Of a stretch of 64,000 bases of DNA, positions 36,671-59,728 are shown in pieces (position 1 is the stretch's first letter; each line of letters opens with the position of its first letter). The stretch comes from Oscillospiraceae bacterium (GTDB taxonomy: Bacteria; Bacillota; Clostridia; Oscillospirales; Butyricicoccaceae). The notes under the pieces were generated by a model. That model was not told where the DNA came from. It ran no database searches and saw only the letters and a program-made list of their open reading frames with translations. The DNA is taken from contig JAZTYK010000002.1 in the NCBI GenBank assembly GCA_045636925.1, positions 61,170-125,169 of the forward strand, read 5' to 3'. Both the position numbers and the translations under genes were made by a program.

Positions 36671-36751
36671 CCTCCTTGCAAATATCCATACCTAAACAAA
36701 AAACACACCCCGGTTGGGGTGTGTTTCTTGTTTGGCGGAGAAGGAGGGATT
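36671..36751. repeat. Copy 1 of an 81-bp direct repeat holding a terminator hairpin plus the last 19 nt of tRNA-Ser
   Basis: Identical to 36883..36963. Contains AAAAAACACACCCCGGTTGGGGTGTGTTT and TGGCGGAGAAGGAGGGATT. Confidence 0.9.
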
Positions 36752-36882
36752 GGCCGCCTGCTGCGCAGGCTTTCTGCTCGGCGACCGCTCGCTGCGCTCC
36801 GGTACCCGCCTCACACCACCCGGCTAAAAAACAGTCCCCCGGACTGTTTTTTCACACCGTGTGCCCTCACGGGTTCAAATCC

Positions 36883-36963
36883 CTCCTTGCAAATATCCAT
36901 ACCTAAACAAAAAACACACCCCGGTTGGGGTGTGTTTCTTGTTTGGCGGAGAAGGAGGGATTT
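36883..36963. repeat. Copy 2 of the 81-bp direct repeat, continuing into the full 23-bp att core
   Basis: Identical to 36671..36751, offset by 212 bp. Confidence 0.9.
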
Positions 36964-36966
36964 GAA
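36944..36966. repeat. attL core, a 23-bp copy of the tRNA-Ser 3' end
   Basis: TGGCGGAGAAGGAGGGATTTGAA is identical to 59639..59661. Similarity stops on both sides. Confidence 0.85.
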
Positions 36967-37079
36967 GAATCATTCGCTTGTTTTATATTCCTCGTTTGAT
37001 ATTATTTTGTACTCTTTTGTGCAAATACAAATGCATTATGTGCTATTTTGTATGGTTTATCGCACCCCTTACTTTTTTG

Positions 37080-38995: not shown

Positions 38996-40372
38996 TTAAT
39001 CAAGCCAGGCAAACTTAGAAAACATACTTACGATACGAAGTATAGTTTCCTTTGTTTTTCTGTTAAAGGTACACTCTCCAATACGTTTTTCGTGTGTAGC
39101 ACCATCGTAAGCTTCTATAAATATTGCTCGGTAAACCTCTTCAAGTTTTCCTTGGATACTTACAACTGCGGAATGGGTCCCACATTCTTCATATGTTTCG
39201 TCCCTGTTCAAAAGCTTGCCAAATGGATTATAGTTTGCATCCATAAACTCAAGCAAAGGGGAGGAATCCTTTCCTTGGATGAACTTTTCATATCTGGCGA
39301 AGTCAACTACTTTCAATCCAATCATAATAGGTACGATATAAAGCAAACAGAACAGGATTGCATGTTCATTCCCAAAAAGGAAATCGTGTTTCTTCGTATT
39401 ATCATGCATAACATCGTGTGCCGCCATTCTTGCAAGACTGAGATATCTAGCGATTTCTCTAAGAGAGAAATCATATCTGCGTATTACTGAATTGCACATC
39501 ATATCGTACAGATAAGAGGTGGCGTTAAATCTGATACTACTATAAAACGATTCAAGATTTACTGGCGGCAACGACATTCGCAAATCAAAAAAGCGATCTA
39601 AGTACCTACAAGCATTGAACTTATCACCATAATATCGTTTAATTGTATGCTGTAATTCGCTTGTGTTAATTGAAAAAACAAATGTAATTCTATCATTGGA
39701 AAAATAGTGCTTAATCCGCTCCAATAAGCGAACTGCATAACTGGGGTTGCATCTATCAAGCTCGTCAATAAAAACTACAAGGCGATCCCCACGTTCTTGT
39801 AAAATGGAATCCAAAAACTCCTTAACTTCTGTTTCAACGTTTTTTGATTTTCTTAATTCGTCAAGTGGCTTCTTCCCCCGGAAATCGGAGATTAAATTGC
39901 TCCAATTTCGCCCTGTAAAAAGCTCTATAATATTCGCTGCGGTTTTAACAAAGGCTGCGTCATCTGGAACAGAGAAATCTGTGTCGACACTTTTTAAAAT
40001 TGCGTAAACTAAGGATAACACCGGATCATTGTCGCTATCATTTTCCCATGCATCATAGTAGACGGATACCTGCGGCGGATATTCCGGATCATTCCCCTTG
40101 TGGAGTCTTTTCCATTCAGAGATAATAGCTGCTTTATCGTCATCATTGAATGTCTTAATAAATTGATTGCTCGCATCTAAAAACATTTTGACTTGATTTA
40201 CAAAAAATGTTTTTCCACTTCCCCAACTACCATCAATCGCTATAGAGCAGCTACCCTCTACGGAATTCAATATATCTACAAAGTGAAAAATATCCGTGTT
40301 GCGCCCAATCGTATCGGTCAAAAAACTATCCATCAAATTTTCATAAGTGGGCTTCAGTTCGTACGATTTCAT
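38996..40372 (-). CDS. KAP-family P-loop NTPase, soluble variant
   Basis: Walker A IDGSWGSGKTFF, a YYDAWEND block, Walker B VVFIDELDRCNP. No TM hairpin lies between the Walker motifs. About one-third GC by eye. Confidence 0.85.
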   Translation of the reverse strand: MKSYELKPTYENLMDSFLTDTIGRNTDIFHFVDILNSVEGSCSIAIDGSWGSGKTFFVNQVKMFLDASNQFIKTFNDDDKAAIISEWKRLHKGNDPEYPPQVSVYYDAWENDSDNDPVLSLVYAILKSVDTDFSVPDDAAFVKTAANIIELFTGRNWSNLISDFRGKKPLDELRKSKNVETEVKEFLDSILQERGDRLVVFIDELDRCNPSYAVRLLERIKHYFSNDRITFVFSINTSELQHTIKRYYGDKFNACRYLDRFFDLRMSLPPVNLESFYSSIRFNATSYLYDMMCNSVIRRYDFSLREIARYLSLARMAAHDVMHDNTKKHDFLFGNEHAILFCLLYIVPIMIGLKVVDFARYEKFIQGKDSSPLLEFMDANYNPFGKLLNRDETYEECGTHSAVVSIQGKLEEVYRAIFIEAYDGATHEKRIGECTFNRKTKETILRIVSMFSKFAWLD

Positions 40373-40512
40373 TATAAATTCACCCTTTATTGTTTGATCC
40401 CCATATCATTACCAAAATGTTTAATTTTTTGCTAAACGCTAATGCCTATGCCGACCAGCATAACAGCCTTGTAGATAACTCGAGTATTTAAAAACGGCCC
40501 TTTTTAATTGCT

Positions 40513-42873
40513 TTAGGATTGAACTCGTTTGATTTCGTCTATAAACATTGTTGTAAGCTCAGATGTTCTGTTTTCAAAAAGTTCATTCCAACTGTCGTTT
40601 TCACTGGTTCTTAAATGGATGGCGGTTTCGATTTTGCAAAATTGCTCTTGCTTTATTCCGGTAATTATCACTTTTCTAACTTGGAAATATCCAGGATCTT
40701 TGCAACAGAAAGTTCCTACCGTTGTGAATAATGTTAGTATGAAAGTCAACGTTTTTTCGGAAACGAGCATCTTTTTCGATATATTAAATAACTCCAGAGC
40801 TCGTTCAATTATGTATTTTGCATTTTCACACTCTCTGTTTTTTAAGCAGAAAATCGCTAGCCAACCCAAAGAATTAGAAACTTTTCTAACGCCCAACTCA
40901 AAATTGTTTTCTATGCAATCGGTACCTATGTTAAACAAGGCTTTGTATGCAAATCGCTTGTTCTCGCTATAATTTGTTATAAAAGAAATTTGTCCACTCT
41001 CCTCTAACAAACTAAAGAAGAAATCAATGATTTTAGAAACCATTTTTTGACCAAACATAGTATCAGTGTCTATTGCTTTATGAAGCCCACTGAGAATGTA
41101 CTTTGCCATCGCTTTAGAAACACTGCGATTTTGATCCATTCGTTCTACAGTCTCTCGCAAAGCAGAAAAGGTAATTTCTTGAAATTGTTCATTAATTGCA
41201 GAACTACTCCGTCGCATTAACCAGAAATATATATTAAACAAGTTCTCTTGTAAATCTTTTTGTCGCTGTTCGGTTTCCGCAAACACATCAACAAGTTTGT
41301 CTAGTATTATGTAAAAAGCGGCTACATTGTCGTGCAAGATACAGGTGTTTAAAAGTTTTTTCGCAAGATTAATTCGACTGTTCATTTTTTCTTTTGATGC
41401 ATATTGACACTCGATGATAATCTTTTTAAAATCGGGCAAAAGTAGAGTTCCTACATATTCACCTTTTAATTTTATGATTTTTTGAATTACATCGATATGG
41501 ATTTTTAGAAGTTTTTCTTTGCTATCAATATCTTCGGTACAATTATATAATTGATCAATGGACATCAATTCAAACTCGATGAATGAGGGATCATTTGAAC
41601 TGACAGTAGACGAACTATATAATCTTTCAAAATAGACAAGAGCCATTCTTGGGTCTTTCTCTACAATTTTATGGAATAAGATTGTATAATAAACTTTTAA
41701 ATTCTCGAATGCACTTTTGTGCCTTAAAACGATACGAGAGAAGTTTTCAATCTTATCTAACATGATGTCGAAAGAGTGCCGATTCTCTTTTTCCAATGAT
41801 TCTACAATTACTGATGTTAAGTATTTGAAGTAGCCTTTTGTGTTGGAATTTTTATTAGAAAAAACCAAAGAAGAAATTAATGACTCTACAGATTCGATAA
41901 GAGATTCAATGTATTCTTCTCTATCATAATGATCTAGTAAATCTATATAAGTTTTGGCAAAAACCGTATAAAACAAATCTATAAGAACATCATTGCCATC
42001 TGTTTGCATCATATAAACATATCGACAATATTCTCGTAAATATATTTTATAATGCTCATATAATTTATTGTTGATACAGTATTTTAAATTGCGGTATTGT
42101 TGTCCAATAATTGTATTAACGACGGCCTCGGATTTTATATGCGAGCAACATTTCAGTTCATATAAATTAAGGTCAACAATTCTTTCAAAGGCTGAATCAA
42201 GGTCTCTTTGCTGTTCATCACTTGCTATCTTAACTACATTTTCTAAAAAACTTTTAAAAATTTTCGAGGTCCGTCTTACAATGATCGAAACAGTTCGATA
42301 TTCATCTTTTACTATGCATTCGTCCAAAATATTTTCAAATTTTCTCAAGGCATCATCCGAAATCGAGTTGTTAGCCTTTTCCAAGTCACTGCATATTTTA
42401 TTACAATAATCTGTCACATGTGTCTCGGTCATCAATGATTTGTTTGAAGTGTAGACATAATATAGGACTTGAATTATTGTGGATACACAGACCATACAAA
42501 ACCATATGCTGGTAAGTGTGCCCTCAAACAACAAGGCATACACACCTAATAGCAATGCATATGTCACTGTTGAAAAGGTAGATTTAATTCTTTTTGAGTA
42601 GGTATCTTTAATAATCTCTATTGGGTATTTATCTTTATATAGTTGTATAAACAATAGGTAGCAAGTGACCCAGATTCCCGATATTGTAACTATTGCGGAA
42701 TACAGTATTGGGATTATTGCGTTTAATGTGGGAATATGAGCGGATAATTGACTATCCCCAATAATACACGCGATAAATGTACTAATATAGCTACCATAAA
42801 CTGCAATTCTTTGTTTTGGGTTTGTTTTAGGGTGCGAGTTATTCTTTTTTAATATAGTCTGCTTCATTCTCAT
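40513..42873 (-). CDS. Hypothetical 786-aa protein with 4-5 N-terminal TM helices and a ~600-aa all-helical domain
   Basis: Long uninterrupted ORF in a very AT-rich segment. Hydrophobic helices lie within residues ~25-140. No catalytic motif recognised. Confidence 0.7.
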   Translation of the reverse strand: MRMKQTILKKNNSHPKTNPKQRIAVYGSYISTFIACIIGDSQLSAHIPTLNAIIPILYSAIVTISGIWVTCYLLFIQLYKDKYPIEIIKDTYSKRIKSTFSTVTYALLLGVYALLFEGTLTSIWFCMVCVSTIIQVLYYVYTSNKSLMTETHVTDYCNKICSDLEKANNSISDDALRKFENILDECIVKDEYRTVSIIVRRTSKIFKSFLENVVKIASDEQQRDLDSAFERIVDLNLYELKCCSHIKSEAVVNTIIGQQYRNLKYCINNKLYEHYKIYLREYCRYVYMMQTDGNDVLIDLFYTVFAKTYIDLLDHYDREEYIESLIESVESLISSLVFSNKNSNTKGYFKYLTSVIVESLEKENRHSFDIMLDKIENFSRIVLRHKSAFENLKVYYTILFHKIVEKDPRMALVYFERLYSSSTVSSNDPSFIEFELMSIDQLYNCTEDIDSKEKLLKIHIDVIQKIIKLKGEYVGTLLLPDFKKIIIECQYASKEKMNSRINLAKKLLNTCILHDNVAAFYIILDKLVDVFAETEQRQKDLQENLFNIYFWLMRRSSSAINEQFQEITFSALRETVERMDQNRSVSKAMAKYILSGLHKAIDTDTMFGQKMVSKIIDFFFSLLEESGQISFITNYSENKRFAYKALFNIGTDCIENNFELGVRKVSNSLGWLAIFCLKNRECENAKYIIERALELFNISKKMLVSEKTLTFILTLFTTVGTFCCKDPGYFQVRKVIITGIKQEQFCKIETAIHLRTSENDSWNELFENRTSELTTMFIDEIKRVQS

Positions 42874-44964: not shown

Positions 44965-46959
44965 TCAGTTCTTGTCCTCTGGAAGGAGGGCACGGGGTTC
45001 TTTGCCTATGTACATACCAGTGAAAATTGCAGTGAGCAGCAGGAACAGCGCCATGCAGGCGATGCCGGTCAGAGCGGTGAGCAACGGGCTTGCGCCGGTG
45101 GAAAGGGCCACCTTTGCGCTTTCTGCCGTGTCGCCCAGAATGCTTGCGCCCACGCTTTGGGTCAGCGCGCCGCCGAGGATTGTACCAAGCGCACCGCCTG
45201 CCAGCACCACAACTGCGGCGCAGGTGAGGATGGCGATAAAAGCCTGCTTTTTGCTGCCGCCCAGCATCCGCAGGATGCCTGCGCTGTGCTTGTGCTGCTG
45301 TGCAAAGAGGAATGCCATCAGCACCATGGTAACTGCCAACAACGCCGCCGACAGGCCCAGCAGCAGCTTGGCATTTTTGTTCATTTCTATCAACCCGGGT
45401 TGGATCTTATCATAACCCTGATCGAAGTAGCTGAGCTTCAGTTCATATTCACCGGACTTTTGCTCCGTCAACCCCATTTCTTCCGCAGCGGCCTTGAACT
45501 CGTTAATGCTGCCGTTTTTCAGTTCGATAGTGATCAAGCTGGGCTGAATGGGCCCTTCCGGCGCATTGGGTGCCGCTTTGGCGGGGATGTAGATGGCGTT
45601 CCACGGGGCAAAAAATACTTGCGGCGCAGTACTCCCAAAATCGGTAAACTCCTGTTGGCCAAAGATACCCACGATCTCATAGGTATCTTCTTCAAAAAAA
45701 CCGCCGCATTCGTTCAAAAAAACGGGTGAAGACATATAGTTTTGTTGCATGGTAGCATTATGGATCACGGAAGTTTTGTCATAAAAGGCATCGTAGATAT
45801 ACAGGTGCATATCCAGTGTGTCCCCCACCTGCCAGCCCTGATACTCTGCCATTTGCGCGCTGACCATACAGACCTTGGCACCGGAAGCATATTCTGCTTT
45901 TGTGATCATTCTGCCCTCGTGGAGATACATCGCCCCTTGATACCACGCAGGGATCAGAGAAATGTCATCCGTCAGGGTTGCAATAAAGGAATGGGCGCTG
46001 TATTCAATGCCCTGACTGCACTCCTTCCAGACAGGGTCATCCTTTACGTCTTCATATCGCTGTAACGCAAAGGGCATTTTTTGCAAAAGGGTTGAACTGT
46101 TGGATACATTCGAATTGTGGATTCCGCTTTTGCTGTAGTATAAAAAATCGTCGGTGTAATAGTCAAATGGATATATATCCAGCTGAATGCCGCTGCCGGA
46201 GCCGGCATAATCACCGGTCCAGACATATACACCTGTTTCCTCATCTCTCTGCCAGTAGCTACCGCCCTTGACCGACATCACGTATTCCACACCGGGATGC
46301 AGAATGATCCGGTCACTGACTTCGCTGCGGTTCAAGCGGCGAATGTCCTCCGTATACTTTTTTGCTTCTTCCATTACCACCGGTTCAATGCGCAGCGTAA
46401 AGGTTTTCGGATATTGCAGATTTGGATTGGAGGTATCTAACACGCGAATGGGAAACTGCATCCACTGCCACTTTTCTGCCTGCAGAGATATTTCCGTTGG
46501 CTCTTCTGCGTCCAACATAAACCGTATAATATTATTGGTGGAAAATGGAGTCACAGACTCCACCAGATAAGCGGGAGGAACCGTGTTGTCCTGCAAAATC
46601 GCTATCTGCCCCGGAATATAGGCCCCCACCCGGGTACGGAGATCGATGCGTTCTACGGAATCCAAAGCAAGAAGCGGCGACAGGTCATACTCCTCTACAG
46701 AAAGCCAATGGCGCCCTACGCAAGCTTTATCGCCGGGATGCACCAGCTCACCCATTTTATTCACATCCCCGTAGATCTCCATCGTTGCAATAGAGGTATA
46801 GGCATTCTCTACGGTTTGCAAGTTCTTCACGCTGTTCTGATACAGGTTTAGGCTCAGCACAAAGAATGCGGTGGTGGCGCACAGCAAAATTAAATTCAGT
46901 GCCAGACGCGCTTTGCTCCGGCTAATCTGCTTGAGAAATATTTGAATATGTGGCTGCAT
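44965..46959 (-). CDS. FtsX/MacB-type permease with a ~480-aa extracytoplasmic domain (paralog 1)
   Basis: 664 aa, with TM1 at the N-terminus and 3 TM helices at the C-terminus. Paralogous to 47620..49650. Confidence 0.8.
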   Translation of the reverse strand: MQPHIQIFLKQISRSKARLALNLILLCATTAFFVLSLNLYQNSVKNLQTVENAYTSIATMEIYGDVNKMGELVHPGDKACVGRHWLSVEEYDLSPLLALDSVERIDLRTRVGAYIPGQIAILQDNTVPPAYLVESVTPFSTNNIIRFMLDAEEPTEISLQAEKWQWMQFPIRVLDTSNPNLQYPKTFTLRIEPVVMEEAKKYTEDIRRLNRSEVSDRIILHPGVEYVMSVKGGSYWQRDEETGVYVWTGDYAGSGSGIQLDIYPFDYYTDDFLYYSKSGIHNSNVSNSSTLLQKMPFALQRYEDVKDDPVWKECSQGIEYSAHSFIATLTDDISLIPAWYQGAMYLHEGRMITKAEYASGAKVCMVSAQMAEYQGWQVGDTLDMHLYIYDAFYDKTSVIHNATMQQNYMSSPVFLNECGGFFEEDTYEIVGIFGQQEFTDFGSTAPQVFFAPWNAIYIPAKAAPNAPEGPIQPSLITIELKNGSINEFKAAAEEMGLTEQKSGEYELKLSYFDQGYDKIQPGLIEMNKNAKLLLGLSAALLAVTMVLMAFLFAQQHKHSAGILRMLGGSKKQAFIAILTCAAVVVLAGGALGTILGGALTQSVGASILGDTAESAKVALSTGASPLLTALTGIACMALFLLLTAIFTGMYIGKEPRALLPEDKN

Positions 46960-47032
46960 AGGGACACCTCACTTTTGCAGAAAGAAGAATCTCCGCAGGC
47001 CCTAAAGGGCCTGCGGACATGGAACATTCGCA

Positions 47033-47341
47033 TCAACTCAAGCAAACAAAGCGGCTCACATAATCAAAAGAAATTGCGTATGCATTACATACGATGCACT
47101 CATAATAAACACCGCAGTACCATTCTTCCGCATCGTGATCTCGATGCTCGGGACATTCAATAACGCGGTTAAACATTTCTTGATACCCTATGCATACAAA
47201 ATCCCGCTGGGCTTCGCAGTAAAAGCAATATGCATCAAATGCAATCTCCCCATCTGCCGCAAATGCCATCACACCCATAGTGGAGCAGATCATGATGAGA
47301 GCCAGTACCAGGCTCAGGGCGCGTTTTGCTTTCTTTAACAT
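47033..47341 (-). CDS. Small Cys-rich protein with N-terminal signal peptide/anchor (paralog B, 102 aa)
   Basis: The start MLKKAKRALSLVLALIMICSTMGVMAFAA follows GAGGAG. CxxC...CP.H...CxxC...C pattern. Lies directly upstream of permease paralog 1. Confidence 0.7.
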   Translation of the reverse strand: MLKKAKRALSLVLALIMICSTMGVMAFAADGEIAFDAYCFYCEAQRDFVCIGYQEMFNRVIECPEHRDHDAEEWYCGVYYECIVCNAYAISFDYVSRFVCLS

Positions 47342-47479
47342 AATAATACTCCTCGCTTTCTTTTTTGTCCAGCAAATTGTGTTCATCCATTTCCTGACCC
47401 ATTGGCCTCACCTTCTTTCCAAATAACGAATACTCCATCTGTTTCAGTGTAACAAGGTTTAATTACCCTTCTATAAATA

Positions 47480-47619: not shown

Positions 47620-49650
47620 CTATCCCTTATCCTGAGGCAACAGTTCGCGAGGTTCTTTGCCGATGTAGGTGGCCGTAAAGATGGCGGTAAGTAGCAGAAA
47701 CAGCGCCATGCAGCCCACGCCGGACACTGCTGTCAGCACCGGGCTTGCACCGGTGGAGAGGGCCACCTTGGCAGAAGCTGCCGCATCACCCAGGGCGCTT
47801 GCGCCCACGGTTTGGGTCAGCGCGCCGCCGAGGATTGTACCAAGCGCACCGCCTGCCAGCACCACAACTGCGGCGCAGGTGAGGATGGCGGTGAAAGTTT
47901 GAGCTTTGCTGCCGCCCAGCATCCGCAGGATGCCTGCGCTGTGCTTATGCTGCTGTGCGAAGAGGAAGCTCATCAAAATCATCGTCACCAGCAGCAGTAT
48001 CAAGGACAAGGCAAGCAACAGAACTGCGTTGCGATTCATTTCCACCAAGCTGCCTTTGATCTTGTCATAGCCCTGATCGAAATAGCTGAACTTCAGCTCA
48101 TACTCTCCCGGCTTTTGCTCGGTCAGACCCATTTCCTCTACGACAGCCTTGAAGTCGTCAACGGTGCCATTTTTCAGATGGAAGGTCAGCAGGCTCGCCT
48201 GAATGGCTCGGTCTTCCAATGCCGGTGCGTGGGGCGCGGAGTTTTCGGGGATGCAGATCACATTCCAGGGCTGTGCAAACACTTCGGGCGCAGCTTCGGA
48301 GTCCACTTCGCCTTCGTTCTGTCCGTAAATGCCTACGATCTCGAACTGCCCTTCGTCGAAAAAGTCCTCCATATACATAGATGCCCACATTTCGCTGCAA
48401 GAGGTGGTTCCGGTATACTGTGGGAAATCTTCATGATACAGATGCATATCCAGCTTGTCGCCCAACTTCCAGCCGTGCCGTTCCGCAAGCCGCGTACTGA
48501 CCATACAGACCTTGGTGCCGGAATCATATTCTTCTTCTGTGATCATCCGGCCTTCCTGAAGAAACATATTCTTCACCTGCCAAGCCGGAAGCAGCCGAAT
48601 GTCCGAGGTCAGTGTCACAGCAAAACTGGAGGTGGAATAAGCTGTGGCCTGCCATAAGGCATCGAAATAGGCGGCAAGCTCCGGGTCGCTTTGTACATCC
48701 TCCCATCGCTGAATACAATAGGGGACATTCCCCTTAATGCCAGCGGAAGTATAATACTCACTGTCGCCTGAATAGTGCAATGCAGCGCCTTCGTACAGAC
48801 AAGGGTAATTATATACCATAAACCGTATAGAAACCACGCGACCTTCTATCGCATTAAGTCTCTGAACCGGAGAATATAAACCGGTATCCGGATCCTTTCG
48901 AAACCATGTATCAGTCTCGCTGGCACCGAACAACACATATTCCACATTAGGATACAGGATCAGTTTATCGGTCTCCTGCGACCGGTTCAGCCGCCGGATC
49001 TCTGCATCGTGGTCATTTTGCACCGCATGAATGACTGATGAAAATGTCAGACCGATGGGGTTTTTGTATTCTATCTGCGGATGGGTGGTCTCCAGCACCT
49101 CGATGTCTACCGCTTTCATATCATAACGATAATATTCGCCTGCTTTTGTCCGGCTGATCTCCACCGGTTCATCGCCGCTGAGACGAAAACGCAGCATGTG
49201 GATTCTCATCGTGGTGTTGACATCCGTTGGCTGCAGGCCGTTGAGCGCCAACTGCGTTTCGTTCATCATCTCGGAAGCATATACATCCAGACTTATCTGC
49301 CCGGGAATATAGGCGGCGCAGCGGTAGCGCAAGTCAACATTCTGTACCATGGGTAACTGCTGCAAGGGAGAAAGATCATAGCCGTATCGTGTCAGCAAAA
49401 AGCGTCCCACTCGGTCGGCGGCGCTGGAATGTACCAGATCACCTTCCTTATTCACATCCCCGTAAATCTCCATGGTGGCGATGGTGGTGTAGGCATTCTC
49501 TACAGCTTGCAGGTTTGCCCGGCTGTTGTGATACAGATTCAAACTGACTACAAAAAAGACTGTAACGGCGCAAAGCAATACAATATTGAGTGCAAAACGG
49601 CTTTTCTTTCGAACCGTTTGCTGAAGAAAAATTCGTATACTGATAGGCAT
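47620..49650 (-). CDS. FtsX/MacB-type permease with a giant extracytoplasmic domain (paralog 2)
   Basis: 676 aa with the same architecture as 44965..46959. The C-terminal ~110 aa are nearly identical between the two. Confidence 0.8.
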   Translation of the reverse strand: MPISIRIFLQQTVRKKSRFALNIVLLCAVTVFFVVSLNLYHNSRANLQAVENAYTTIATMEIYGDVNKEGDLVHSSAADRVGRFLLTRYGYDLSPLQQLPMVQNVDLRYRCAAYIPGQISLDVYASEMMNETQLALNGLQPTDVNTTMRIHMLRFRLSGDEPVEISRTKAGEYYRYDMKAVDIEVLETTHPQIEYKNPIGLTFSSVIHAVQNDHDAEIRRLNRSQETDKLILYPNVEYVLFGASETDTWFRKDPDTGLYSPVQRLNAIEGRVVSIRFMVYNYPCLYEGAALHYSGDSEYYTSAGIKGNVPYCIQRWEDVQSDPELAAYFDALWQATAYSTSSFAVTLTSDIRLLPAWQVKNMFLQEGRMITEEEYDSGTKVCMVSTRLAERHGWKLGDKLDMHLYHEDFPQYTGTTSCSEMWASMYMEDFFDEGQFEIVGIYGQNEGEVDSEAAPEVFAQPWNVICIPENSAPHAPALEDRAIQASLLTFHLKNGTVDDFKAVVEEMGLTEQKPGEYELKFSYFDQGYDKIKGSLVEMNRNAVLLLALSLILLLVTMILMSFLFAQQHKHSAGILRMLGGSKAQTFTAILTCAAVVVLAGGALGTILGGALTQTVGASALGDAAASAKVALSTGASPVLTAVSGVGCMALFLLLTAIFTATYIGKEPRELLPQDKG

Positions 49651-49720
49651 ACTGACACATCCTTTTTACGGCGGAAATGCGGCAGGCGGATTATCCGCCT
49701 GCCACATCTTATTTAAATGG

Positions 49721-50023
49721 TTACCAAAGACAAATGTAATCTTTACGATCGAAACCACTGTCGTATTCCCACTCGCAGTTTCTACAGCGGAGGATATAAT
49801 GTACATAATACTCCTCCGCATCATGTTGTTCGTTGTGCAACGGACATACGATAACGCGATTGAATTGCCAATCCTCAATTCTCCGGAGAACGAGGTCCTC
49901 ACCACAGTTGGGGCACTCGGAAGGTGCGGCGGTTTCTGCCGCGAACGCCATGACGCCCATGGTGGAACAGATCATGATGAGAGCCAATACCAGACTCAGA
50001 GTTCTTTTGGTTTTTCTTAACAT
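49721..50023 (-). CDS. Small Cys-rich protein with N-terminal signal peptide/anchor (paralog A, 100 aa)
   Basis: The start MLRKTKRTLSLVLALIMICSTMGVMAFAA lies 8 nt after AAGGAG. CPNC...CPLH...CRNC...C pattern. Confidence 0.7.
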   Translation of the reverse strand: MLRKTKRTLSLVLALIMICSTMGVMAFAAETAAPSECPNCGEDLVLRRIEDWQFNRVIVCPLHNEQHDAEEYYVHYILRCRNCEWEYDSGFDRKDYICLW

Positions 50024-50183
50024 GTTCATAACTCCTTTTCGTTTGTTTTTTTCTTGAACACAGTCTTCGATATCAAACGCTTCCTGGCCCATTGGACTCA
50101 CCCCTGTCTTCCGCATTTTCTTGCGGTTATTGCGAATTTGAAATGAAGAAGAACAAATATCGCTTATTTGCTTCTCTACTATG

Positions 50184-52470: not shown

Positions 52471-52480
52471 ATACTATAAA

Positions 52481-52514
52481 ATGCTGGGCACCTGCGGGTG
52501 CCCAGCATTTTTTA
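52481..52514 (+). terminator. Intrinsic terminator of the sigma/anti-sigma operon
   Basis: ATGCTGGGCACC-TGCG-GGTGCCCAGCAT followed by TTTTTT. Confidence 0.9.
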
Positions 52515-52634
52515 ATTAAAGATTAGATGAAACAAAAGTGGCATATCCATACATACTATAGTAAAAGTCAAAAAATGTTGGTTTTTGCAGGATTAAACCG
52601 TTGCCCTCTAAAGGAAAGAAAGGATGCGAAAGTA

Positions 52635-53801
52635 ATGGAAAAGCGTGTTTTTGAAAAGAAAACTAAGGAAGAAAAGCCTGTCTTAGCAATTTGCTATGAT
52701 TTCGACAAGACTTTGACACCAGACGATATGCAAGCGCAGGGATATATTCAATCTGTTGGCTATAATGTTGCTGATTTTTGGAAAGAATCCAACGGCTTGG
52801 CCGAATGCAACGATATGGATCAAAATCTAGCCTATATGTACAAAATGATTGAAAAGGCGCAAGGGCGTGTATTATTTACTCGCAAAAACTTAGAAGAATA
52901 TGGGGCAAAAGTCAAACTTTTTCCTGGTGTGGATGAATGGTTTGAAAGAATTCGAGAGTATGGAAAGCTTCGCGGCGTAATTGTCGAGCATTACATTATT
53001 TCCTCCGGCCTTAAGGAAATGATTGAGGGAACTTCGGTGGCAAAGAGCGGTGCTTTTGAAAAAATATATGCCAGCTCTTTTTATTTTGATGAGCATGGTG
53101 TTGCCAAGTGGCCGGCACAAGTCGTAAATTACACGAATAAGACGCAGTTTCTGTTTAGAATTGAAAAGGGTGTTTTGGATGTAAATGATTTTGCGGTAAA
53201 TGATTTCTTTGCACCCGAAGACATTAGAGTTCCCTTTAGAAATATGGTTTATATTGGTGACAGCGATACGGACATTCCTTGTATGAAGCTGGTTAATACT
53301 TATGGAGGGCACTCCATTGGTGTTTATAATACCGAAAAAGTAAAAGTCTATAAAATGATGCGAGATAGACGAATTAAGTACTATGCACCAGCTGACTATT
53401 CTGAGGGTAGTGAGTTGGATACGTTAGTAAAATCCATTATCGATCGAACTGTAGCCAATGAGATTTTGGAATCGCGACATTATGAATGCAAAAAAGAAAC
53501 CGCCGAAGCGGATAAACAGAGCGGTGAAGAAGAGCAGCGCAAAACAGATTTGATTATTGCGTTGGAAAACAGTAACAGTTTTGCAAGAACACATTCCATT
53601 ATCAGCAAATTGAGTGCGTTTAACAATTGGAGCGATGAAGATCGGGAATTCTTGTTTGACATTGCGGTCGAGAACGGGCAGGTGTTTTACATTTTGGGAG
53701 ATAGGGATGTGAAAGCCTTTTATAAAAAGCTACTGAGGAAGACGGCTACGCTTACGGAAAATGCTCAAAAAGTAAAGGATGCTATAAAAGGCAAAGAGTA
53801 A
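52635..53801 (+). CDS. HAD-superfamily phosphatase-like protein with a ~110-aa C-terminal helical extension
   Basis: The start MEKRVFEKK. Motif I ICYDFDKTLT (DxDxT). Motif IV YIGDSDTDIPCM. Confidence 0.75.
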   Translation: MEKRVFEKKTKEEKPVLAICYDFDKTLTPDDMQAQGYIQSVGYNVADFWKESNGLAECNDMDQNLAYMYKMIEKAQGRVLFTRKNLEEYGAKVKLFPGVDEWFERIREYGKLRGVIVEHYIISSGLKEMIEGTSVAKSGAFEKIYASSFYFDEHGVAKWPAQVVNYTNKTQFLFRIEKGVLDVNDFAVNDFFAPEDIRVPFRNMVYIGDSDTDIPCMKLVNTYGGHSIGVYNTEKVKVYKMMRDRRIKYYAPADYSEGSELDTLVKSIIDRTVANEILESRHYECKKETAEADKQSGEEEQRKTDLIIALENSNSFARTHSIISKLSAFNNWSDEDREFLFDIAVENGQVFYILGDRDVKAFYKKLLRKTATLTENAQKVKDAIKGKE

Positions 53802-53985
53802 AAAGGAGCATTTAAACGGAAAGATGTAAGTGGAATTCCTGTTAGATCTTGACAGGAAAGTTGTTTCATCACAAGCATTGGAATTCAAGGATTCATGCAA
53901 ACAACTTGTTGACATTTAGCACTTTCATTGAGTATGGAAAAGTGATTTATAAGAAGACTTGAATTTAGGTATAAAGGAGATTGGT

Positions 53986-54534
53986 ATGGATCCTGCATAT
54001 ACACAACCATTAGTAGAAATGGGAATGTCCCTCACTGAGCTCGCTATTAAGGGAACAGCTACCGCTGTTACAAATAAAATCAAAGCTGTCAAAGATGAGA
54101 AGAATGTAGAAAAGCTCCGTAACACTTACGATGAAATTGTCAGCGAGTTGCTTTCCGAACGAGATGAAGCGGTTCGAATCGCACAAGCATACAAATCGGA
54201 ATTGGAGAGAATTGTTATTAGTGATGAAGATATAGAACATCTGCACAACACTGTTTCTCGCATTCTGGAAATCATAAAGGCCTTCCAGTTGATTTCGGCA
54301 ACAGCGAAAGGGCCGGATGAGGTAGCTAAAGTTGCTGCACAGGCGGAAAGCTATGAGCAAATCAAGGAATTGATTAGTGTAGACACGCTGAAGACCATGC
54401 AACTTTTAGGATTTAATTATAAAGCTGCGATTGGTGAGCCCTTAACACAAATGTGCGCCAATGCCATCTCAACCATTGGCGCAAAAGGAAAACTACAGTC
54501 ATCCAATATAACTCCCAAGAACAAAGGTCGGTGA
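53986..54534 (+). CDS. Hypothetical all-helical 182-aa protein
   Basis: The start MDPAYTQPLVEM follows AAGGAG. Its stop lies 6 nt before the next ATG. No motif recognised. Confidence 0.6.
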   Translation: MDPAYTQPLVEMGMSLTELAIKGTATAVTNKIKAVKDEKNVEKLRNTYDEIVSELLSERDEAVRIAQAYKSELERIVISDEDIEHLHNTVSRILEIIKAFQLISATAKGPDEVAKVAAQAESYEQIKELISVDTLKTMQLLGFNYKAAIGEPLTQMCANAISTIGAKGKLQSSNITPKNKGR

Positions 54535-54540
54535 AGATAA

Positions 54541-55293
54541 ATGAAGAAAAAATATCAGGTTTTCATTAGCTCAACATATAGCGATCTAATAGAGGAACGT
54601 GCAGCTGTAGCACAGTGTCTGTTAGAGACAGATTGCATTCCTGTTGGCATGGAGCAATTTCCGGCGAGCAATATGAGCCAAATGGATTATATCAAAATGA
54701 TGATTGACGATTGCGATTATTATGTTCTGATACTTGCTGGCAGATATGGATCTCTTGACACCGATGGGGTAAGTTTTACGGAAAAAGAATACAATTACGC
54801 AATCGAAAAAGGCATCCCCGTAATGAGTTTTGTCATCAAAGATGTAGAACAGCTAACAAATGATAAACGCGAGGAAACTGACGAAAGTTGCCAAAAGTTG
54901 AATGCATTTCGGAAAAAGGTTTGTGACAGAAAATTAGTCAAATTCTATAAGGACTGTGGAACGCTTCAAGCTGCTGTTGCTATTTCGCTCCATCGTTGTA
55001 TTCAAGATTTTCCTGCTGTTGGTTGGGTGCGAAGTGATAACACTGAAACACCCGTGGATGTTGAAGCAAAAATCGAAAAGTATATGCAAGAACATACGGT
55101 TTCTAAAGCAGACATTGAAGCATTGTTTGCAGAAGATACAATTATTTTTGATTGCGGTGATGCAAACTTACATGGTTCGGATGCAGAAAAAGCACAAGAA
55201 TCGTGTTCCGACACGGTTTCCTTGGCTGGAGCTCGTGCAATAGTTGAAGGGTTAACAAAAAGGTTACCAAAGGTTGAATGGGGAGACCTTTAA
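54541..55293 (+). CDS. DUF4062-domain (TIR-like fold) protein
   Basis: The N-terminus KYQVFISSTYSDLIEERAAVAQCLLE...IPVGMEQFPA...DYYVLILAGRYG matches the DUF4062 signature as I remember it. Confidence 0.65.
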   Translation: MKKKYQVFISSTYSDLIEERAAVAQCLLETDCIPVGMEQFPASNMSQMDYIKMMIDDCDYYVLILAGRYGSLDTDGVSFTEKEYNYAIEKGIPVMSFVIKDVEQLTNDKREETDESCQKLNAFRKKVCDRKLVKFYKDCGTLQAAVAISLHRCIQDFPAVGWVRSDNTETPVDVEAKIEKYMQEHTVSKADIEALFAEDTIIFDCGDANLHGSDAEKAQESCSDTVSLAGARAIVEGLTKRLPKVEWGDL

Positions 55294-55467
55294 TTGAGTA
55301 AGCGCTTCCATTCCTTTCCCCGTAGCAACAAGAAATCTGATAGTCTATACTTTGTGGACAATGTAGATGCATAAGATACCCTGAACTAAACAGCCTATGC
55401 CAAATTGTTTAGGTTATCTTTTAGAGGAACGAGGGGTATCTGTAACCAACTACCGCGTACTATTTGG

Positions 55468-56943
55468 GACCGTCCCAAATTTTGTGTAAACCTTCATTGT
55501 GGTGTAGAATAGAAGCACCACAATGGAGGTTTTACTTATGAGCAGAAAGAATCGAAGTCCAGAAGAACAGGCCCGGCGAGCAAAAATCCGGGAGTTGCTG
55601 CAAGCGAGCAATATCAGCAGTATGAATGACATCCAGAATCTTTTCAAAGAGACCATCGCAGAATTCATGGAAAACGGTCTGGAATGCGAATTAGATGAGG
55701 AGCTGTGATACAGCAAATATGACTACAAGAACAAAGACACAGACAACAGCCGGAACGGTCACAGTAGCAAAACTCTACGCACCAGCTTCGGCGATGTGGA
55801 TATTTCGGTGCCGCGGGATCGCAAGGGTGAGTTTGAGCCTCAGCTGCTGAAAAAGAATCAGACCAGCATCAGTCAGGATATCGAAGAAAAGATCCTTTCC
55901 ATGTACGCGAAAGGGATGAGTACTAGAGATATCGAAACCCACATCCGGGATATTTATGGCATTGAGGTCTCAGACACAACAGTAAGCCAGGTTACAGACA
56001 AGATCCTTCCCATTGTGAAAGAATGACAGCAGCGGCCTCTGGAGAGCGTTTATGCGGTGGTGTTTCTGGATGCCATCCACTACCATGTCCGGAGCGAAGG
56101 TCAGATTGTGAAGAAGGCCGTCTACATCGCCATAGGAATCAATTTGGACGGCAAAAAAGATGTTCTTGGTATGTGGGTGGGTGAAAATGAAAGCGCTAAA
56201 TTCGGGGCTACTATCCTCAATGGACTGAGAAACCGGGGCGTACAGGACATTTTCATCGCCTGTACGGACAATCTGACTGGTTTTTCTGCAGCTATTGAGG
56301 CCGTATATCCCCGGACGGAGATCCAGAACTGCATCATTCACCAACTCAGAAACTCCAGCAAATATGTCAGTTACAAGGACCTGAAGGTCCTCATGGCTGA
56401 TTTGAAAGAAGTATATGCCGCCTTGGATGCGCTGGATCGCTTTGCAGACCGGTGGGACAAGAAATATCCCAAAATCGCACAGTCCTGGAGAGACAACTGG
56501 CCAAATCTGAGCACCTACTTCAAATTTCCTCAGGAGATTCGCCGGTTGATTTACACCACGAATACAATTGAGGGCTTTAACCGCCAACTCCGAAAGGTAA
56601 CCACGGCAAAAACCGTGTTCCCCACAGATGACAGCCTACTGAAAATGCTGTATCTGGCCATGATGGACATTACGAAGAAATGGACTGGACGGCGCCAGGA
56701 CTGGAGTATGATCCATGCCCAAATGGCCGTTTATTTTGAGGACAGGATGCCTGATTAACAGATCATTACATGCAAATCAAGGGTAAAGTGAACAGCTGCT
56801 TCCCAGCCGCTGCACTTGACATGCGCGCTATTTTCTGTCTATATTGAAAGCAAGGGGTGGCGGACAAGCCACCACCCCAACAAATAATTTTTGCTCTATT
56901 TTTCACCGCTCTGCGGTGTTTACACAGAATTTGGGACACATCC
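55468..56943 (+). mobile_element. IS256-family insertion sequence (1476 bp), non-autonomous copy
   Basis: Imperfect terminal inverted repeats (GTCCCAAATTTTGTGTAAAC versus the reverse complement GTCCCAAATTCTGTGTAAAC). Flanked by direct TACTATTTGG at 55458..55467 and 56944..56953. Confidence 0.85.
55538..56758 (+). pseudogene. IS256-family (Transposase_mut) transposase with two in-frame TGA stops
   Basis: A single frame is interrupted at 55706..55708 (expected Gly in ELDEELGYSKYDY) and at 56024..56026 (expected Trp in VKEWQQRPLE). The DDE region is otherwise intact. Confidence 0.85.
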
Positions 56944-57166: not shown

Positions 57167-58012
57167 TTACTCAAGATCTAAAGTAGTATCTACTATCTGT
57201 CTCAATTTTTCTTCTGCACTTCTATAACTAATTACTAAGTCTTTTTCTTTCTTGCTCAACACAATTGCCTCTTGCTGTGCATTAAACTTGTAAAAATCGG
57301 CCAGCTCAACCGCTTTCCCTTCAGCAGAAAAAACTTCGCAAAGTCTTATCAAATCGTAATCTGTTGGCACTCTAATGCGTAACTCCCACTGCTGAATTAC
57401 TGTCTCCGCAATTCCCATACGTTCTGCAAGAAATCCTTGTGTAAGCCCTCTCTCTTTTCGGAAAGACATGATTGCTCTTCCGAAATCATAGGCTTCAAAG
57501 TCTTCCGGAGATTCTACATGCATCAATCCTTCAATCGCTGGATCGGTTTCCGTCTTTCCCGAAAGGTACTCATATGATACGCCCATTATTTTAGCAATCG
57601 CACGAAGATATTTCGCTGGAACAACATAATGTGCGCTTTCAAACCTCAAGTAATGAGCTAAAGAAATTCCCAGCATTTCTGCCATCATCGCGGCTCGATA
57701 TCGCAACGCATATCTCGCATTTTGCAGTTTTTGCGAAACATCAATGATAGATATGTCAGTATCTGTTGTTCCGCTGAAGTATTCACTACACGTTAGGGCA
57801 TCCAAATCAATTTCAAGTGCTTGGCTTATTTTATACGCTGTATCTAACGACGTTGTACCTACGCCACGCTTTAAAATTGTACCCATAGAGGTTACCGGGA
57901 TTCCTGCTTTTTTCGCAAAATCTTTTATCGTCATTCCAGTCTCTGCTATTAAACGTCTAAGAAACGCTTCTCTGGTCTCGCCAATCAGTAATTCGGGAGT
58001 TTGCTTTCTCAT
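57167..58012 (-). CDS. XRE-family transcriptional regulator with three tandem HTH domains (element repressor candidate)
   Basis: The start MRKQTPELL follows AGAAGGTG. There are three HTH_3-like segments (MTIKDFAKKAGIPVTSMGTILKRG, AAMMAEMLGISLAHYLRFE, LTQGFLAERMGIAETVIQQWE). Confidence 0.8.
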   Translation of the reverse strand: MRKQTPELLIGETREAFLRRLIAETGMTIKDFAKKAGIPVTSMGTILKRGVGTTSLDTAYKISQALEIDLDALTCSEYFSGTTDTDISIIDVSQKLQNARYALRYRAAMMAEMLGISLAHYLRFESAHYVVPAKYLRAIAKIMGVSYEYLSGKTETDPAIEGLMHVESPEDFEAYDFGRAIMSFRKERGLTQGFLAERMGIAETVIQQWELRIRVPTDYDLIRLCEVFSAEGKAVELADFYKFNAQQEAIVLSKKEKDLVISYRSAEEKLRQIVDTTLDLE

Positions 58013-58090
58013 ACAATCACCTTCTTTTGCTTTTATCCTATCACGCTCTCCCTCAAAACGCAATAGCGTATCTGTTTTTTCATTTTTTGC

Positions 58091-58175: not shown

Positions 58176-58376
58176 ATGTCAGAAAAAATCAATTCTTATA
58201 TATTAAGCGTTTGCGACGTTGCATCCATACTCAACATATCCAAATCGAAAGCCTATGACCTTATGCGGACAGATTCTTTTCCCTCACTACGGGTCGGAAA
58301 ACGAATTCTTGTCCCTCGCGACAGATTCGAGGCCTGGATAGATCAACAAATAAGTTCAAATAGAAACAATGAATAG
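58176..58376 (+). CDS. xis: Excisionase-family HTH DNA-binding protein
   Basis: 66 aa. VASILNISKSKAYDLMRTDSFPSLRVGKRILVPRDRFEAWI is typical of the MerR-like excisionase family. Confidence 0.8.
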   Translation: MSEKINSYILSVCDVASILNISKSKAYDLMRTDSFPSLRVGKRILVPRDRFEAWIDQQISSNRNNE

Positions 58377-58386
58377 GAGTGTATAT

Positions 58387-59556
58387 ATGGCAAAAAATCG
58401 CGCAAGGGGAGGCGGGTCCATCCGCCAGCGTTCCGATGGCAGATGGGAAGCTCGCTATACGGCGGGCAATGATCCTTTAACTGGAAAGCAGCTTCAACGG
58501 TCCGTTTATGGAAAGACCCAGCGAGAGGCACAGCAAAAGCTCAATAAAGTTCTCGCCGAGGTAGACTCCGGCACATATCTAAAGCACTCAAAAGAAACCC
58601 TGGCCTCTTGGATGGAATCCTGGCTTGAAACCTTTGCTGCACGCTCTGTCAAACCGTATACGCTGGACGCCTACCAGCGTATCTGCCAGGTCCACATCAT
58701 TCCTGCACTGGGGCATATTGCCCTCGCCTCTTTGACCACGATGCAAGTACAATCCTTTTATAACAGTTTGACAGATAGCAAGTGCCTCTCCGCTAAAACG
58801 GTAAAAAATGTACACGGGGTATTGCACAAAGCTCTTACAAAGGCCGTGCTGTTGCGCAAAATTTCCTTTAATCCTGCTGAAGGGTGCGATCTTCCTCGCG
58901 TCAAACGCAAGGAAATTCAACCATTGACCCAAGAGCAAATCGGTGACTTCTTGCGTGCAATTTGCGGGCACGTCTATGAGTTTCTCTTTTTCTTCACGCT
59001 TTTTACCGGGGTGCGAGAAGGAGAAGCCCTAGGTTTGACCTGGAACCGTATTGATTTTCAGAACAACAAAATCTTGATCGATAGGCAGCTTCAGAAAAAT
59101 GAAAAAGTTGGGGGTGAGTATATCCTGTCCTCCCCTAAAAATAGCAGGCCGCGCACCATCACTGTTTCCCCCTCTGTTATGGCCGTTCTTCGCAAGCAGC
59201 GCTCTCATCAACTCCGACAGCAGTTGGCGGCAGGGCCTGCATGGGACAACCCTCTCAACTTGGTTTTTACCAATGCCTTTGGAGGCCATTTGTGCCACAC
59301 CACCGTCTACAAGAATTTCAAGGTCATCGCAACACAGATTGGAGCACCTGATCGGCGTTTTCACGATCTCCGCCACACCTATGCAGTGCTCGCACTTGAG
59401 GCAGGGGATGACATCAAGACCTTACAAGAACATCTTGGTCACGCCACCGCAGCTTTCACACTCAGCGTATATGGTCACGTATCTGAGTTGATGCATCAAC
59501 GCTCAGCAGCCCGTATGGATCAGGTCGTGCAAAGTTTCACGAAAGAAGCCGTTTAA
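58387..59556 (+). CDS. int: Tyrosine-type site-specific integrase
   Basis: The start MAKNRARGGGSIRQRSDGRWEARY follows AGGAG. Catalytic blocks HDLRHTYA and LGHATAAFTLSVYGH. Confidence 0.92.
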   Translation: MAKNRARGGGSIRQRSDGRWEARYTAGNDPLTGKQLQRSVYGKTQREAQQKLNKVLAEVDSGTYLKHSKETLASWMESWLETFAARSVKPYTLDAYQRICQVHIIPALGHIALASLTTMQVQSFYNSLTDSKCLSAKTVKNVHGVLHKALTKAVLLRKISFNPAEGCDLPRVKRKEIQPLTQEQIGDFLRAICGHVYEFLFFFTLFTGVREGEALGLTWNRIDFQNNKILIDRQLQKNEKVGGEYILSSPKNSRPRTITVSPSVMAVLRKQRSHQLRQQLAAGPAWDNPLNLVFTNAFGGHLCHTTVYKNFKVIATQIGAPDRRFHDLRHTYAVLALEAGDDIKTLQEHLGHATAAFTLSVYGHVSELMHQRSAARMDQVVQSFTKEAV

Positions 59557-59593: not shown

Positions 59594-59638
59594 GAAAAAT
59601 AAAAAAGCCTGCAACCCTAAGGATTGCAGACTATTCTC

Positions 59639-59661
59639 TGGCGGAGAAGGAGGGATTTGAA
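59639..59661. repeat. attR core, the 3' end of the intact tRNA-Ser
   Basis: Identical to 36944..36966. Confidence 0.85.
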
Positions 59662-59728
59662 CCCTCGCGACCCTTTCGAGCCCTACTCCCTTAGCAGGGG
59701 AGCCCCTTCACCACTTGGGTACTTCTCC
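59639..59728 (-). tRNA. tRNA-Ser (anticodon GCU), CCA-encoded, long variable arm
   Basis: The reverse complement folds by hand. Acceptor GGAGAAG/CTTCTCC. Anticodon stem CTCCC/GGGAG with loop CTGCTAA. Variable arm of 19 nt. T-arm GAGGG-TTCAAAT-CCCTC. 3' GCCA. Confidence 0.92.

Follow-up and report, generated by a model that had tools for sequence, protein, structure and literature searches.

Three separable genes, among them a DUF4062 NADase-family member, form a probable defence islet on a tRNA-Ser island of an Oscillospiraceae bacterium

Three neighbouring genes in an AT-rich segment of a tRNA-Ser island

We analysed a stretch of 64,000 nucleotides (nt) from an Oscillospiraceae bacterium (assembly GCA_045636925.1, contig JAZTYK010000002.1, positions 61,170 to 125,169; hereafter the window), in which three same-strand genes lie side by side and code for a phosphatase of the HAD superfamily, a protein of 182 amino acids (aa) that we call H182, and a DUF4062 protein. 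A model's reading of the sequence alone had put these genes forward as a novel conflict or defence module; its three open reading frames (ORFs), their coordinates (Table 1) and the gaps between them, 184 nt after the HAD gene (53802-53985) and 6 nt between H182 and DUF4062 (54535-54540), were confirmed. Our own interpretation, which we hold at a probability of about 70%, is that the locus is a small defence islet with three functionally separable cargo genes on an integrative island and not a new three-gene system.

The genes lie, as had been proposed, in an AT-rich segment of a mobile island at tRNA-Ser(GCT), with a GC content of 0.39-0.41 over the HAD, H182 and DUF4062 genes against about 0.55 in the flanks. 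The HAD gene occupies a terminator-bounded slot of its own, and the strong hairpin upstream divides it from the preceding genes for a sigma factor, an anti-sigma factor and a 160-aa protein. Its ORF is nested in a longer one with an alternative in-frame ATG at 52527; we favour the start at 52635 because the alignment to the PADLOC model described below begins at residue 4 of the 388-aa form. The H182 gene has an AAAGGAG ribosome-binding site 8 nt 5' of its ATG. A promoter scan of the 184-nt gap in front of it called none, and a perfect TTGACA at 53909-53914 is visible by eye only. The hairpin downstream of the DUF4062 gene is likely the end of the H182-DUF4062 transcript.

The DUF4062 protein as a member of a TIR-like NADase defence family

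DUF4062 domains are TIR-like NADases. KpSwz (Swarozyc) of K. pneumoniae is a single-gene abortive-infection system that requires E97 and a C-terminal auxiliary domain and is activated by binding of the phage portal protein (Osinski et al. 2026, bioRxiv 10.64898/2026.05.01.722283; PDB 10wc/11cq/11cv). The Evangelion systems (Eva01-04), likewise single genes, combine a conserved DUF4062 core (F11, E87-Y88, W162 and a Q/W/E motif) with a diversified auxiliary (AUX) region that is needed for defence, and Eva01 is triggered by replication and recombination functions (Ibarra-Chavez et al. 2026, bioRxiv 10.64898/2026.06.25.731849). NADase activity, abortive infection and the requirement for AUX were demonstrated experimentally for both KpSwz and Eva01 (10.64898/2026.05.01.722283; 10.64898/2026.06.25.731849), which bears out the earlier suggestion that DUF4062 is TIR-like and belongs to an NAD-centred type of immunity.

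The assignment of the window protein to DUF4062, proposed from its N-terminus, was borne out by a match of residues 6-87 to the full length of the Pfam model (PF13271, E 3.4e-30). Residues 2-171 match the solved KpSwz chain (PDB 10wc) with an E value of 1.3e-44 and 45% identity over 170 aa; chain 10wc_A carries the substitution E97A, and the mutated Ala aligns with E83 of the window protein. F8, E83-Y84 and W162 align to F11, E87-Y88 and W162 of the Eva01-type protein from S. aureus pSaa6159 and are invariant across 62 members of the window protein's clade, F8 and W162 also in a five-way alignment. At the position of the Q/W/E motif the protein reads Q47-M48-D49. Within the clade the Gln is invariant, M48 nearly so and position 49 is Asp or Glu; since the Met is nearly invariant, we regard Q-M-D as a clade-level variant.

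An AlphaFold2 (AF2) model is confident over residues 1-165 (predicted local distance difference test score, pLDDT, about 90) and shows five strands alternating with helices. The best Foldseek matches of this core in the PDB are RPPT-TIR, SARM1 TIR, TIR-STING, AbTir and nucleoside 2-deoxyribosyltransferase; a housekeeping role as the last of these was rejected on the KpSwz match and the defence-island contexts. Residues 166-250 form three short helices modelled with low confidence. They are conserved inside the protein's own clade and variable across DUF4062 proteins, which range from 186 to 357 aa. Past residue 171 no similarity to KpSwz was found, and the helix-turn-helix (HTH)/winged-helix AUX that binds the portal is not recognisable, so the trigger is probably different from the portal. 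Neither neighbouring protein contains a SLOG, Macro or SIR2 domain in Pfam, NCBIfam or PADLOC searches, as a Thoeris-like arrangement would. The DUF4062 gene is a new member of the family described in 2026; judged by its sequence, its product belongs with the DUF4062 NADase defence proteins (Swarozyc/Evangelion/NIR) and has its own short AUX, but strictly speaking it does not count as a Swarozyc of the KpSwz type.

The three genes do not travel together

Relatives were found in metagenome-assembled genomes (MAGs) of Oscillospiraceae and other Clostridia from the gut. All three genes together occurred in none of 172 related loci other than the window, and a HAD gene was never seen beside a DUF4062 gene. 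A HAD homologue was absent from all 67 other DUF4062-bearing loci, a number in which nearly identical contigs that cover one place in several samples are counted separately. The sequence-only reading had itself named a lack of synteny in other genomes as grounds for giving up its novel three-gene module, and that part of it does not stand; its doubt that the HAD gene belongs to the unit was well placed.

These counts bear on the proposal that HAD, H182 and DUF4062 make up one NAD or nucleotide immune module, in which the phosphatase might, for example, process ADP-ribose-derived products or block phage NAD+ regeneration. The genes are adjacent, on the same strand and in one island, and HAD phosphatases do partner other effectors in Metis (PUA-Cal-HAD), CARF-HAD and DS-9. 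However, what lies upstream of the closest H182-DUF4062 pairs is not HAD but SEC-C, GMP synthase or VanZ; between the HAD gene and the pair there are 184 nt that include a hairpin; and HAD relatives stand in unrelated contexts. Because synteny is lacking, we consider such a module largely refuted and very improbable.

The DUF4062 gene is also found apart from H182. Neither H182 nor HAD was present at any of 25 DUF4062 loci from GTDB genomes (39-77% identity). Relatives at 61, 67, 68 and 73% identity follow, respectively, YhcG/DUF1016, HsdR plus a reverse transcriptase, YhcG, and DUF4411, again without H182 or HAD, and lie in islands rich in restriction-modification (RM), AIPR and Schlafen-type genes. 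DUF4062 genes of the window clade repeatedly adjoin a YhcG/DUF1016 gene of the PD-(D/E)XK type (loci L013-L018, L134-L139 and L146-L149), which precedes the DUF4062 gene by 19-39 nt in two contexts and in a third follows it at a distance of about 150 nt.

Conversely, an unbiased metagenome scan yielded 80 H182 loci (64-85% identity), none of which carried DUF4062; the same was true of 12 loci of two common H182 proteins. Among sequences close to the window the picture differs. The closest DUF4062 relatives (82% identity) all have H182 upstream, and nearly all H182 genes at least 85% identical to the window copy precede a DUF4062 gene. In one such case an 82%-identical DUF4062 (P0002) and a 92%-identical H182 (P0122) are paired with the same 6-nt junction in contexts unlike the window and unlike each other; in another, on a mobilisable element, 17 nt separate an 85%-identical H182 from a downstream DUF4062 variant of 213 aa. 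These pairs share conserved junction DNA, and homology to other H182 contexts ends near the H182 3' end.

One explanation would be that H182 and DUF4062 form a genuine two-gene system in the window lineage. H182 would then be a trans-acting sensor for an NADase whose own AUX is too small, or else its inhibitor, antitoxin or assembly factor. Consistent with this, the window, L021-25, L158-163 and, with the 213-aa variant, L146-151 all have the pair with a conserved junction and with different flanks. In the window a single terminator-bounded slot holds both genes, and the AUX region is short, with low model confidence. On the other hand, DUF4062 proteins of the same clade and length (244-248 aa, with the same AUX) occur without H182. 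A tree of DUF4062 cores places the H182-linked genes in two positions with unlinked ones between, so that they are not monophyletic. An 85%-identical H182 has no tightly linked downstream gene at all, the nearest being a serine recombinase 759 nt off, and in the close H182 clade the gene that follows can also be one for a 265-aa HNH-like protein. The 80 unbiased H182 loci argue in the same direction, no fusion of H182 and DUF4062 was found, and Swarozyc and Evangelion function as single genes. We regard a genuine two-gene system as unlikely, and the arrangement reads as a lineage-restricted, separable juxtaposition. Against the earlier view, the pairing is limited to one sub-lineage, and each gene freely occurs without the other.

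The 265-aa protein takes the place of DUF4062 in L152-L157 (e.g. L152 997-1794), directly after an 82%-identical H182 and with a 17-nt gap. A weak N-terminal HNH_5 match was its only hit, and we rejected it as a divergent DUF4062; it is possible that it represents a further effector type.

Several observations weigh against our interpretation of the DUF4062 gene as a separable, single-gene system. The H182-DUF4062 junction (6 nt, or 17 nt in one variant) is kept in at least four genomic contexts, and the DUF4062 partners in them have diverged to 67-82% identity. Such recurrence goes beyond a single chance adjacency and would agree with a functional pairing specific to the lineage. The AUX, being short and poorly modelled, may leave room for a sensor that acts in trans, and activity could differ with Q-M-D in place of the Evangelion Q/W/E. 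A third DUF4062 preprint ('NIR', September 2026) may describe multi-gene variants. Finally, defence roles for this DUF4062 clade, for the HAD family PDC-S34 and for H182 are predictions drawn from sequence and genomic context.

The HAD protein matches the defence candidate PDC-S34

Pfam assigns the product of the first gene to HAD (E 1.8e-9) and TIGR01488 to HAD-IB (E 3.2e-7), and the catalytic motifs noticed earlier are intact in the translation, with DFDKT as the DxDxT nucleophile motif and GDSDTD as GDxxxD. A far stronger match was obtained to the PADLOC model PDLC05001 (PDC-S34; E 1.1e-200, residues 4-384, model of 384 positions). This model covers the C-terminal helical extension, which the sequence-only reading could not place. 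PDC-S34 is a phage defence candidate from the set of Payne et al. 2024 (bioRxiv 10.1101/2024.01.29.577857). In the searchable literature we found no text mention of PDC-S34, S20 or S31, and no experimental test of PDC-S34.

The contexts of HAD homologues point to independence. One is embedded as hsdS-Shedu-HAD-hsdR on Methylocystis pGW6_2, others stand directly 3' of hsdR in four gut contigs, and one in Vescimonas is alone among housekeeping genes; near the 69%-identical copy in a Phocaeicola record there is no H182 gene and no DUF4062 gene. By sequence, the HAD gene would be an already catalogued, independent single-gene defence candidate, and the window supplies a further instance of PDC-S34 inside an island. 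Its earlier description as a defence gene survives in this form, though not as part of a DUF4062 unit. Since HAD phosphatases act in the validated systems Metis, CARF-HAD and DS-9, a nucleotide-directed phosphatase role is plausible.

H182 belongs to a large family linked to restriction-modification operons

H182 had been described as all-helical with no recognisable motif, in agreement with our results: no match was found in Pfam, NCBIfam or PADLOC, and an AF2 model built with 53 homologues is all-helical (pLDDT 63, predicted template modelling score 0.32). When this model was compared with the PDB by Foldseek, no match fell below E 0.4. With a profile search of PDB sequences, the sole result was a match of coiled-coil type to the N-terminus of IpaB (E 1.8e-4, with compositional bias). 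A comparison by hhalign with a neighbouring DUF2806 protein was negative. The family is nevertheless large, with 514 clusters at 50% identity (E<=1e-3) and more than 2,400 at 90%. Its members are about 160-205 aa long, with a coiled-coil-like N-terminal part and an invariant or nearly invariant C-terminal motif (LQLLGFNYKxAIGEPLT). The ratio of nonsynonymous to synonymous substitution rates (dN/dS) is 0.05-0.07 against the closest homologues, and we therefore take H182 to be a real coding gene under strong purifying selection. No protein in which H182 is fused to another domain, DUF4062 included, turned up in a local hidden Markov model (HMM) search. Among the representative-search proteins, the one long hit in the fusion search (P0323, 333 aa) is a tandem duplication of the whole H182 unit, both copies with the GFNYKKAIGEPLT motif, consistent with the unit working as a dimer or repeat.

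In 52 of the 80 unbiased loci (65%) H182 has an adjacent gene for HsdS, HsdR, HsdM, a PtuA-like protein, PLD or DUF2806, and 78 of 79 such neighbours are on the same strand within 120 nt. Clustering of the neighbours in 97 loci and annotation of the recurrent ones gave four main arrangements. The first is hsdM-hsdS-H182-hsdR, with gaps of -7 to 14 nt and of 8 nt, often with Fic upstream and with PDC-S31 or PDC-S34 after hsdR. In the second, XRE and a PLD nuclease precede H182 (16-nt gap); in the third, a Septu-like PtuA ATPase follows it (5-nt gap); the fourth is H182-DUF2806-hsdR. Genomic context tracks H182 sub-lineage. Among distant homologues on plasmids, the one in E. faecium precedes hsdM, whereas those in Lactococcus and Clavibacter follow genes for a 1,557-aa helicase and an ATPase, respectively.

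Gut-metagenome operons of the first kind (L056, L082-L102 and others, e.g. L094 3381-9900) read Fic-hsdM-hsdS-H182-hsdR followed by PDC-S31 or a PDC-S34-like HAD gene, with several candidates stacked per operon. On a 4683-bp plasmid of S. delphini (NZ_CP094737.1, L166), which otherwise carries only rep, a small ORF and a DNA cytosine (C5-)methyltransferase gene, a 38%-identical H182 homologue is located directly downstream of the methyltransferase gene. H182 relatives are linked to methyltransferases even in this minimal replicon. Viral contigs contained no H182 or HAD hit and only two DUF4062 hits, and the sole hits in a set of phage GenBank records were two distant ones from Acinetobacter phages. 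On this near-absence we rejected an origin mainly in phages.

H182 might instead be a mobile-element or regulatory gene that is outside defence and simply accompanies defence genes, for example a controller that delays the expression of toxic neighbours after transfer, or a conserved recombination anchor for cargo swapping. Solo copies near serine-recombinase remnants, HTH_16/sigma-r4 genes and contig ends would fit this proposal, as would the way in which homology between contexts ends near the H182 3' end with the downstream genes swapped; H182 also lacks a catalytic motif and has a coiled-coil-like fold. Against it stand the strong purifying selection on the protein sequence with its invariant C-terminal motif, the lack of homologues in the viral contigs, and the position in Type I RM operons, in which H182 shares 7 nt with hsdS and is separated by 8 nt from hsdR, the slot of known embedded defence genes such as PrrC. 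We consider a role outside defence rather improbable. H182 is best described as an uncatalogued, restriction-linked and defence-embedded gene family, and in the window it is most likely an embedded defence or accessory gene in its own right, with no obligate tie to the NADase. Our more tentative suggestion, which we think less likely than not, is that the family is a new and widespread defence component. It could cause abortive infection by itself, or it could be a promiscuous subunit with the role of a sensor or guard. Such a subunit would plug into effectors as varied as HsdR, a Septu-type ATPase, a PLD nuclease, an HNH-like protein and, in the window lineage, a DUF4062 NADase with a minimal sensor region of its own.

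The island and its further cargo

The 3' end of tRNA-Ser(GCT), about 23 nt (TGGCGGAGAAGGAGGGATTTGAA), is repeated within the left-hand 28-nt copies (Table 1). These tRNA-end repeats, at 36728/36939 on the left and 59634 on the right, bound an island of about 22.7 kb. A second, arm-like 28-nt repeat lies just within both ends, at 37076 and 59566. Next to the tRNA follow, in order, genes for a tyrosine integrase, an excisionase-like HTH_17 protein and an XRE/CI-type repressor, with a broken IS256 transposase gene between these and DUF4062. From the repeats and the integrase module at tRNA-Ser it follows that the HAD, H182 and DUF4062 genes are cargo of this integrative island.

Table 1. Positions in the window of the three genes and of the island features around them.
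Feature	Position	Strand	Description
HAD gene	52635..53801	+	HAD-IB-type phosphatase gene, 388 aa; PADLOC PDC-S34 member including C-terminal helical extension
H182 gene	53986..54534	+	182-aa all-helical protein; large unannotated family, usually inside restriction-modification or other defence operons
DUF4062 gene	54541..55293	+	250-aa protein, DUF4062 domain and C-terminal AUX region
DUF4062 NADase domain, TIR-like (predicted)	54541..55035	+	residues 1-165; catalytic Glu E83, codon 54787-54789
AUX region of DUF4062 protein	55036..55293	+	residues 166-250 and stop codon; presumed trigger-sensing or oligomerisation part
Hairpin, strong, bidirectional, terminator-like	52478..52511	.	15-pair stem, 8 GC pairs; upstream of HAD gene
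Terminator-like hairpin	55462..55480	+	downstream of DUF4062 gene
IS256/Mutator-family transposase, broken	55523..56758 (two ORF fragments at 55796..56758)	+	PF00872 2.4e-21 and 8e-66 on separate ORFs
XRE/CI-type repressor	57167-58063	minus	part of island recombination module
Excisionase-like HTH_17 protein	58176-58376	plus	part of island recombination module
Tyrosine integrase with arm-binding domain	58369-59556	plus	part of island recombination module
28-nt repeat, right-hand copy	59634..59661	.	overlaps 3' end of tRNA-Ser(GCT)
28-nt repeat, left-hand copies	36728-36755 and 36939-36966		contain tRNA 3'-end match
tRNA-Ser(GCT)	59639-59728	minus	

A perfect 81-nt direct repeat (36671-36751 and 36882-36962, spacing 211 nt) duplicates the left-hand tRNA-Ser attachment (att) sequence, which suggests a remnant of tandem or successive integrations at tRNA-Ser. 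The most AT-rich part of the island (38996-42873, minus strand; GC 0.31-0.38) codes for a KAP-family P-loop NTPase that matches the PADLOC candidate PDC-S20 (E 4e-52) and, adjoining it, a 786-aa protein with no Pfam or PADLOC match; the two may be another defence pair. Further into the island, genes for MacB/FtsX-type permeases of 664 and 676 aa (44971-47348 and 47626-50030) form a diverged tandem duplication with 71-82% DNA identity, each with a small upstream ORF in the duplicated unit, and adjoin an ABC ATPase gene and a sigma/anti-sigma (DUF4367) pair, all in the island. The IS256/Mutator transposase gene directly 3' of DUF4062 is spread over two or more reading frames and is probably inactive. 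In L141, a DUF4062 gene with 67% identity is likewise flanked by a related transposase.

Proposed roles of the three genes

We propose that the DUF4062 gene would bring about abortive infection on its own, as a system of the Swarozyc/Evangelion/NIR kind. If KpSwz and Eva01 are a guide, the N-terminal TIR-like domain of its product would be a latent NADase held inactive in an oligomer until a phage-made trigger engages the C-terminal AUX, and the infected cell would then halt before phage release. The protein belongs to the family, has its fold and its catalytic residues, and, by genomic context, relatives at 61-73% identity stand apart from H182 and HAD; the NADase activity, the abortive outcome and the nature of the trigger are what the analogy predicts. 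The HAD protein is a predicted Mg-dependent phosphatase with an Asp nucleophile, presumably acting on a nucleotide-type substrate. H182, in the window sub-lineage, stands in front of the DUF4062 gene and is probably co-transcribed with it.

Taken as a whole, the sequence-only reading anticipated the defence character of the locus, its TIR-like and NAD-centred component and its mobility, and erred in the novel three-gene module. Its remark that the combination is not a named system has been overtaken, since the HAD gene corresponds to PDC-S34 and the family that includes the DUF4062 gene was published in 2026. The DUF4062 gene extends this newly described family of TIR-like NADase defence proteins into gut Clostridia. 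Its very short and unrelated AUX should have a trigger other than the KpSwz portal, which makes the protein useful for asking how the family is activated. The H182 family is strongly conserved, very common in human-gut metagenomes and nearly always located in RM or defence operons, and it is absent from every annotation library searched.

Comparison with known systems

The window's DUF4062 protein resembles Swarozyc in its architecture, with the TIR-like NADase domain (DUF4062) at the N-terminus and an auxiliary region at the C-terminus of one polypeptide, in its 45% identity to KpSwz with the catalytic Glu kept, and in its location on a defence island or mobile element. It differs in length, with 250 aa against 326 aa for the solved KpSwz chain (a construct from residue 15), and in its host, a gut Clostridia-type organism instead of an enterobacterium. 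With Evangelion it shares the conserved DUF4062 core, in which the F, E-Y and W positions are all kept, a short diversified AUX and carriage on a mobile element. However, it is only 31-38% identical to a pMW2-type Eva01 protein and has Q-M-D for Q/W/E, and its gene is on a chromosomal island and not on a resistance plasmid; moreover, the gene is preceded by H182, an arrangement not described for Eva01.

H182 is reminiscent of PrrC-type embedded genes. Its homologues fill the same hsdS-hsdR slot of Type I RM operons, with reading frames that overlap or nearly do ('guilt-by-embedding'). In contrast to PrrC, H182 has no nuclease or ATPase domain; it is coiled-coil-like, about 180 aa long and matches no known fold, and the window copy is not in any RM operon. 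The HAD protein matches PDC-S34 from end to end with no structural difference; the family itself has the standing of a prediction.

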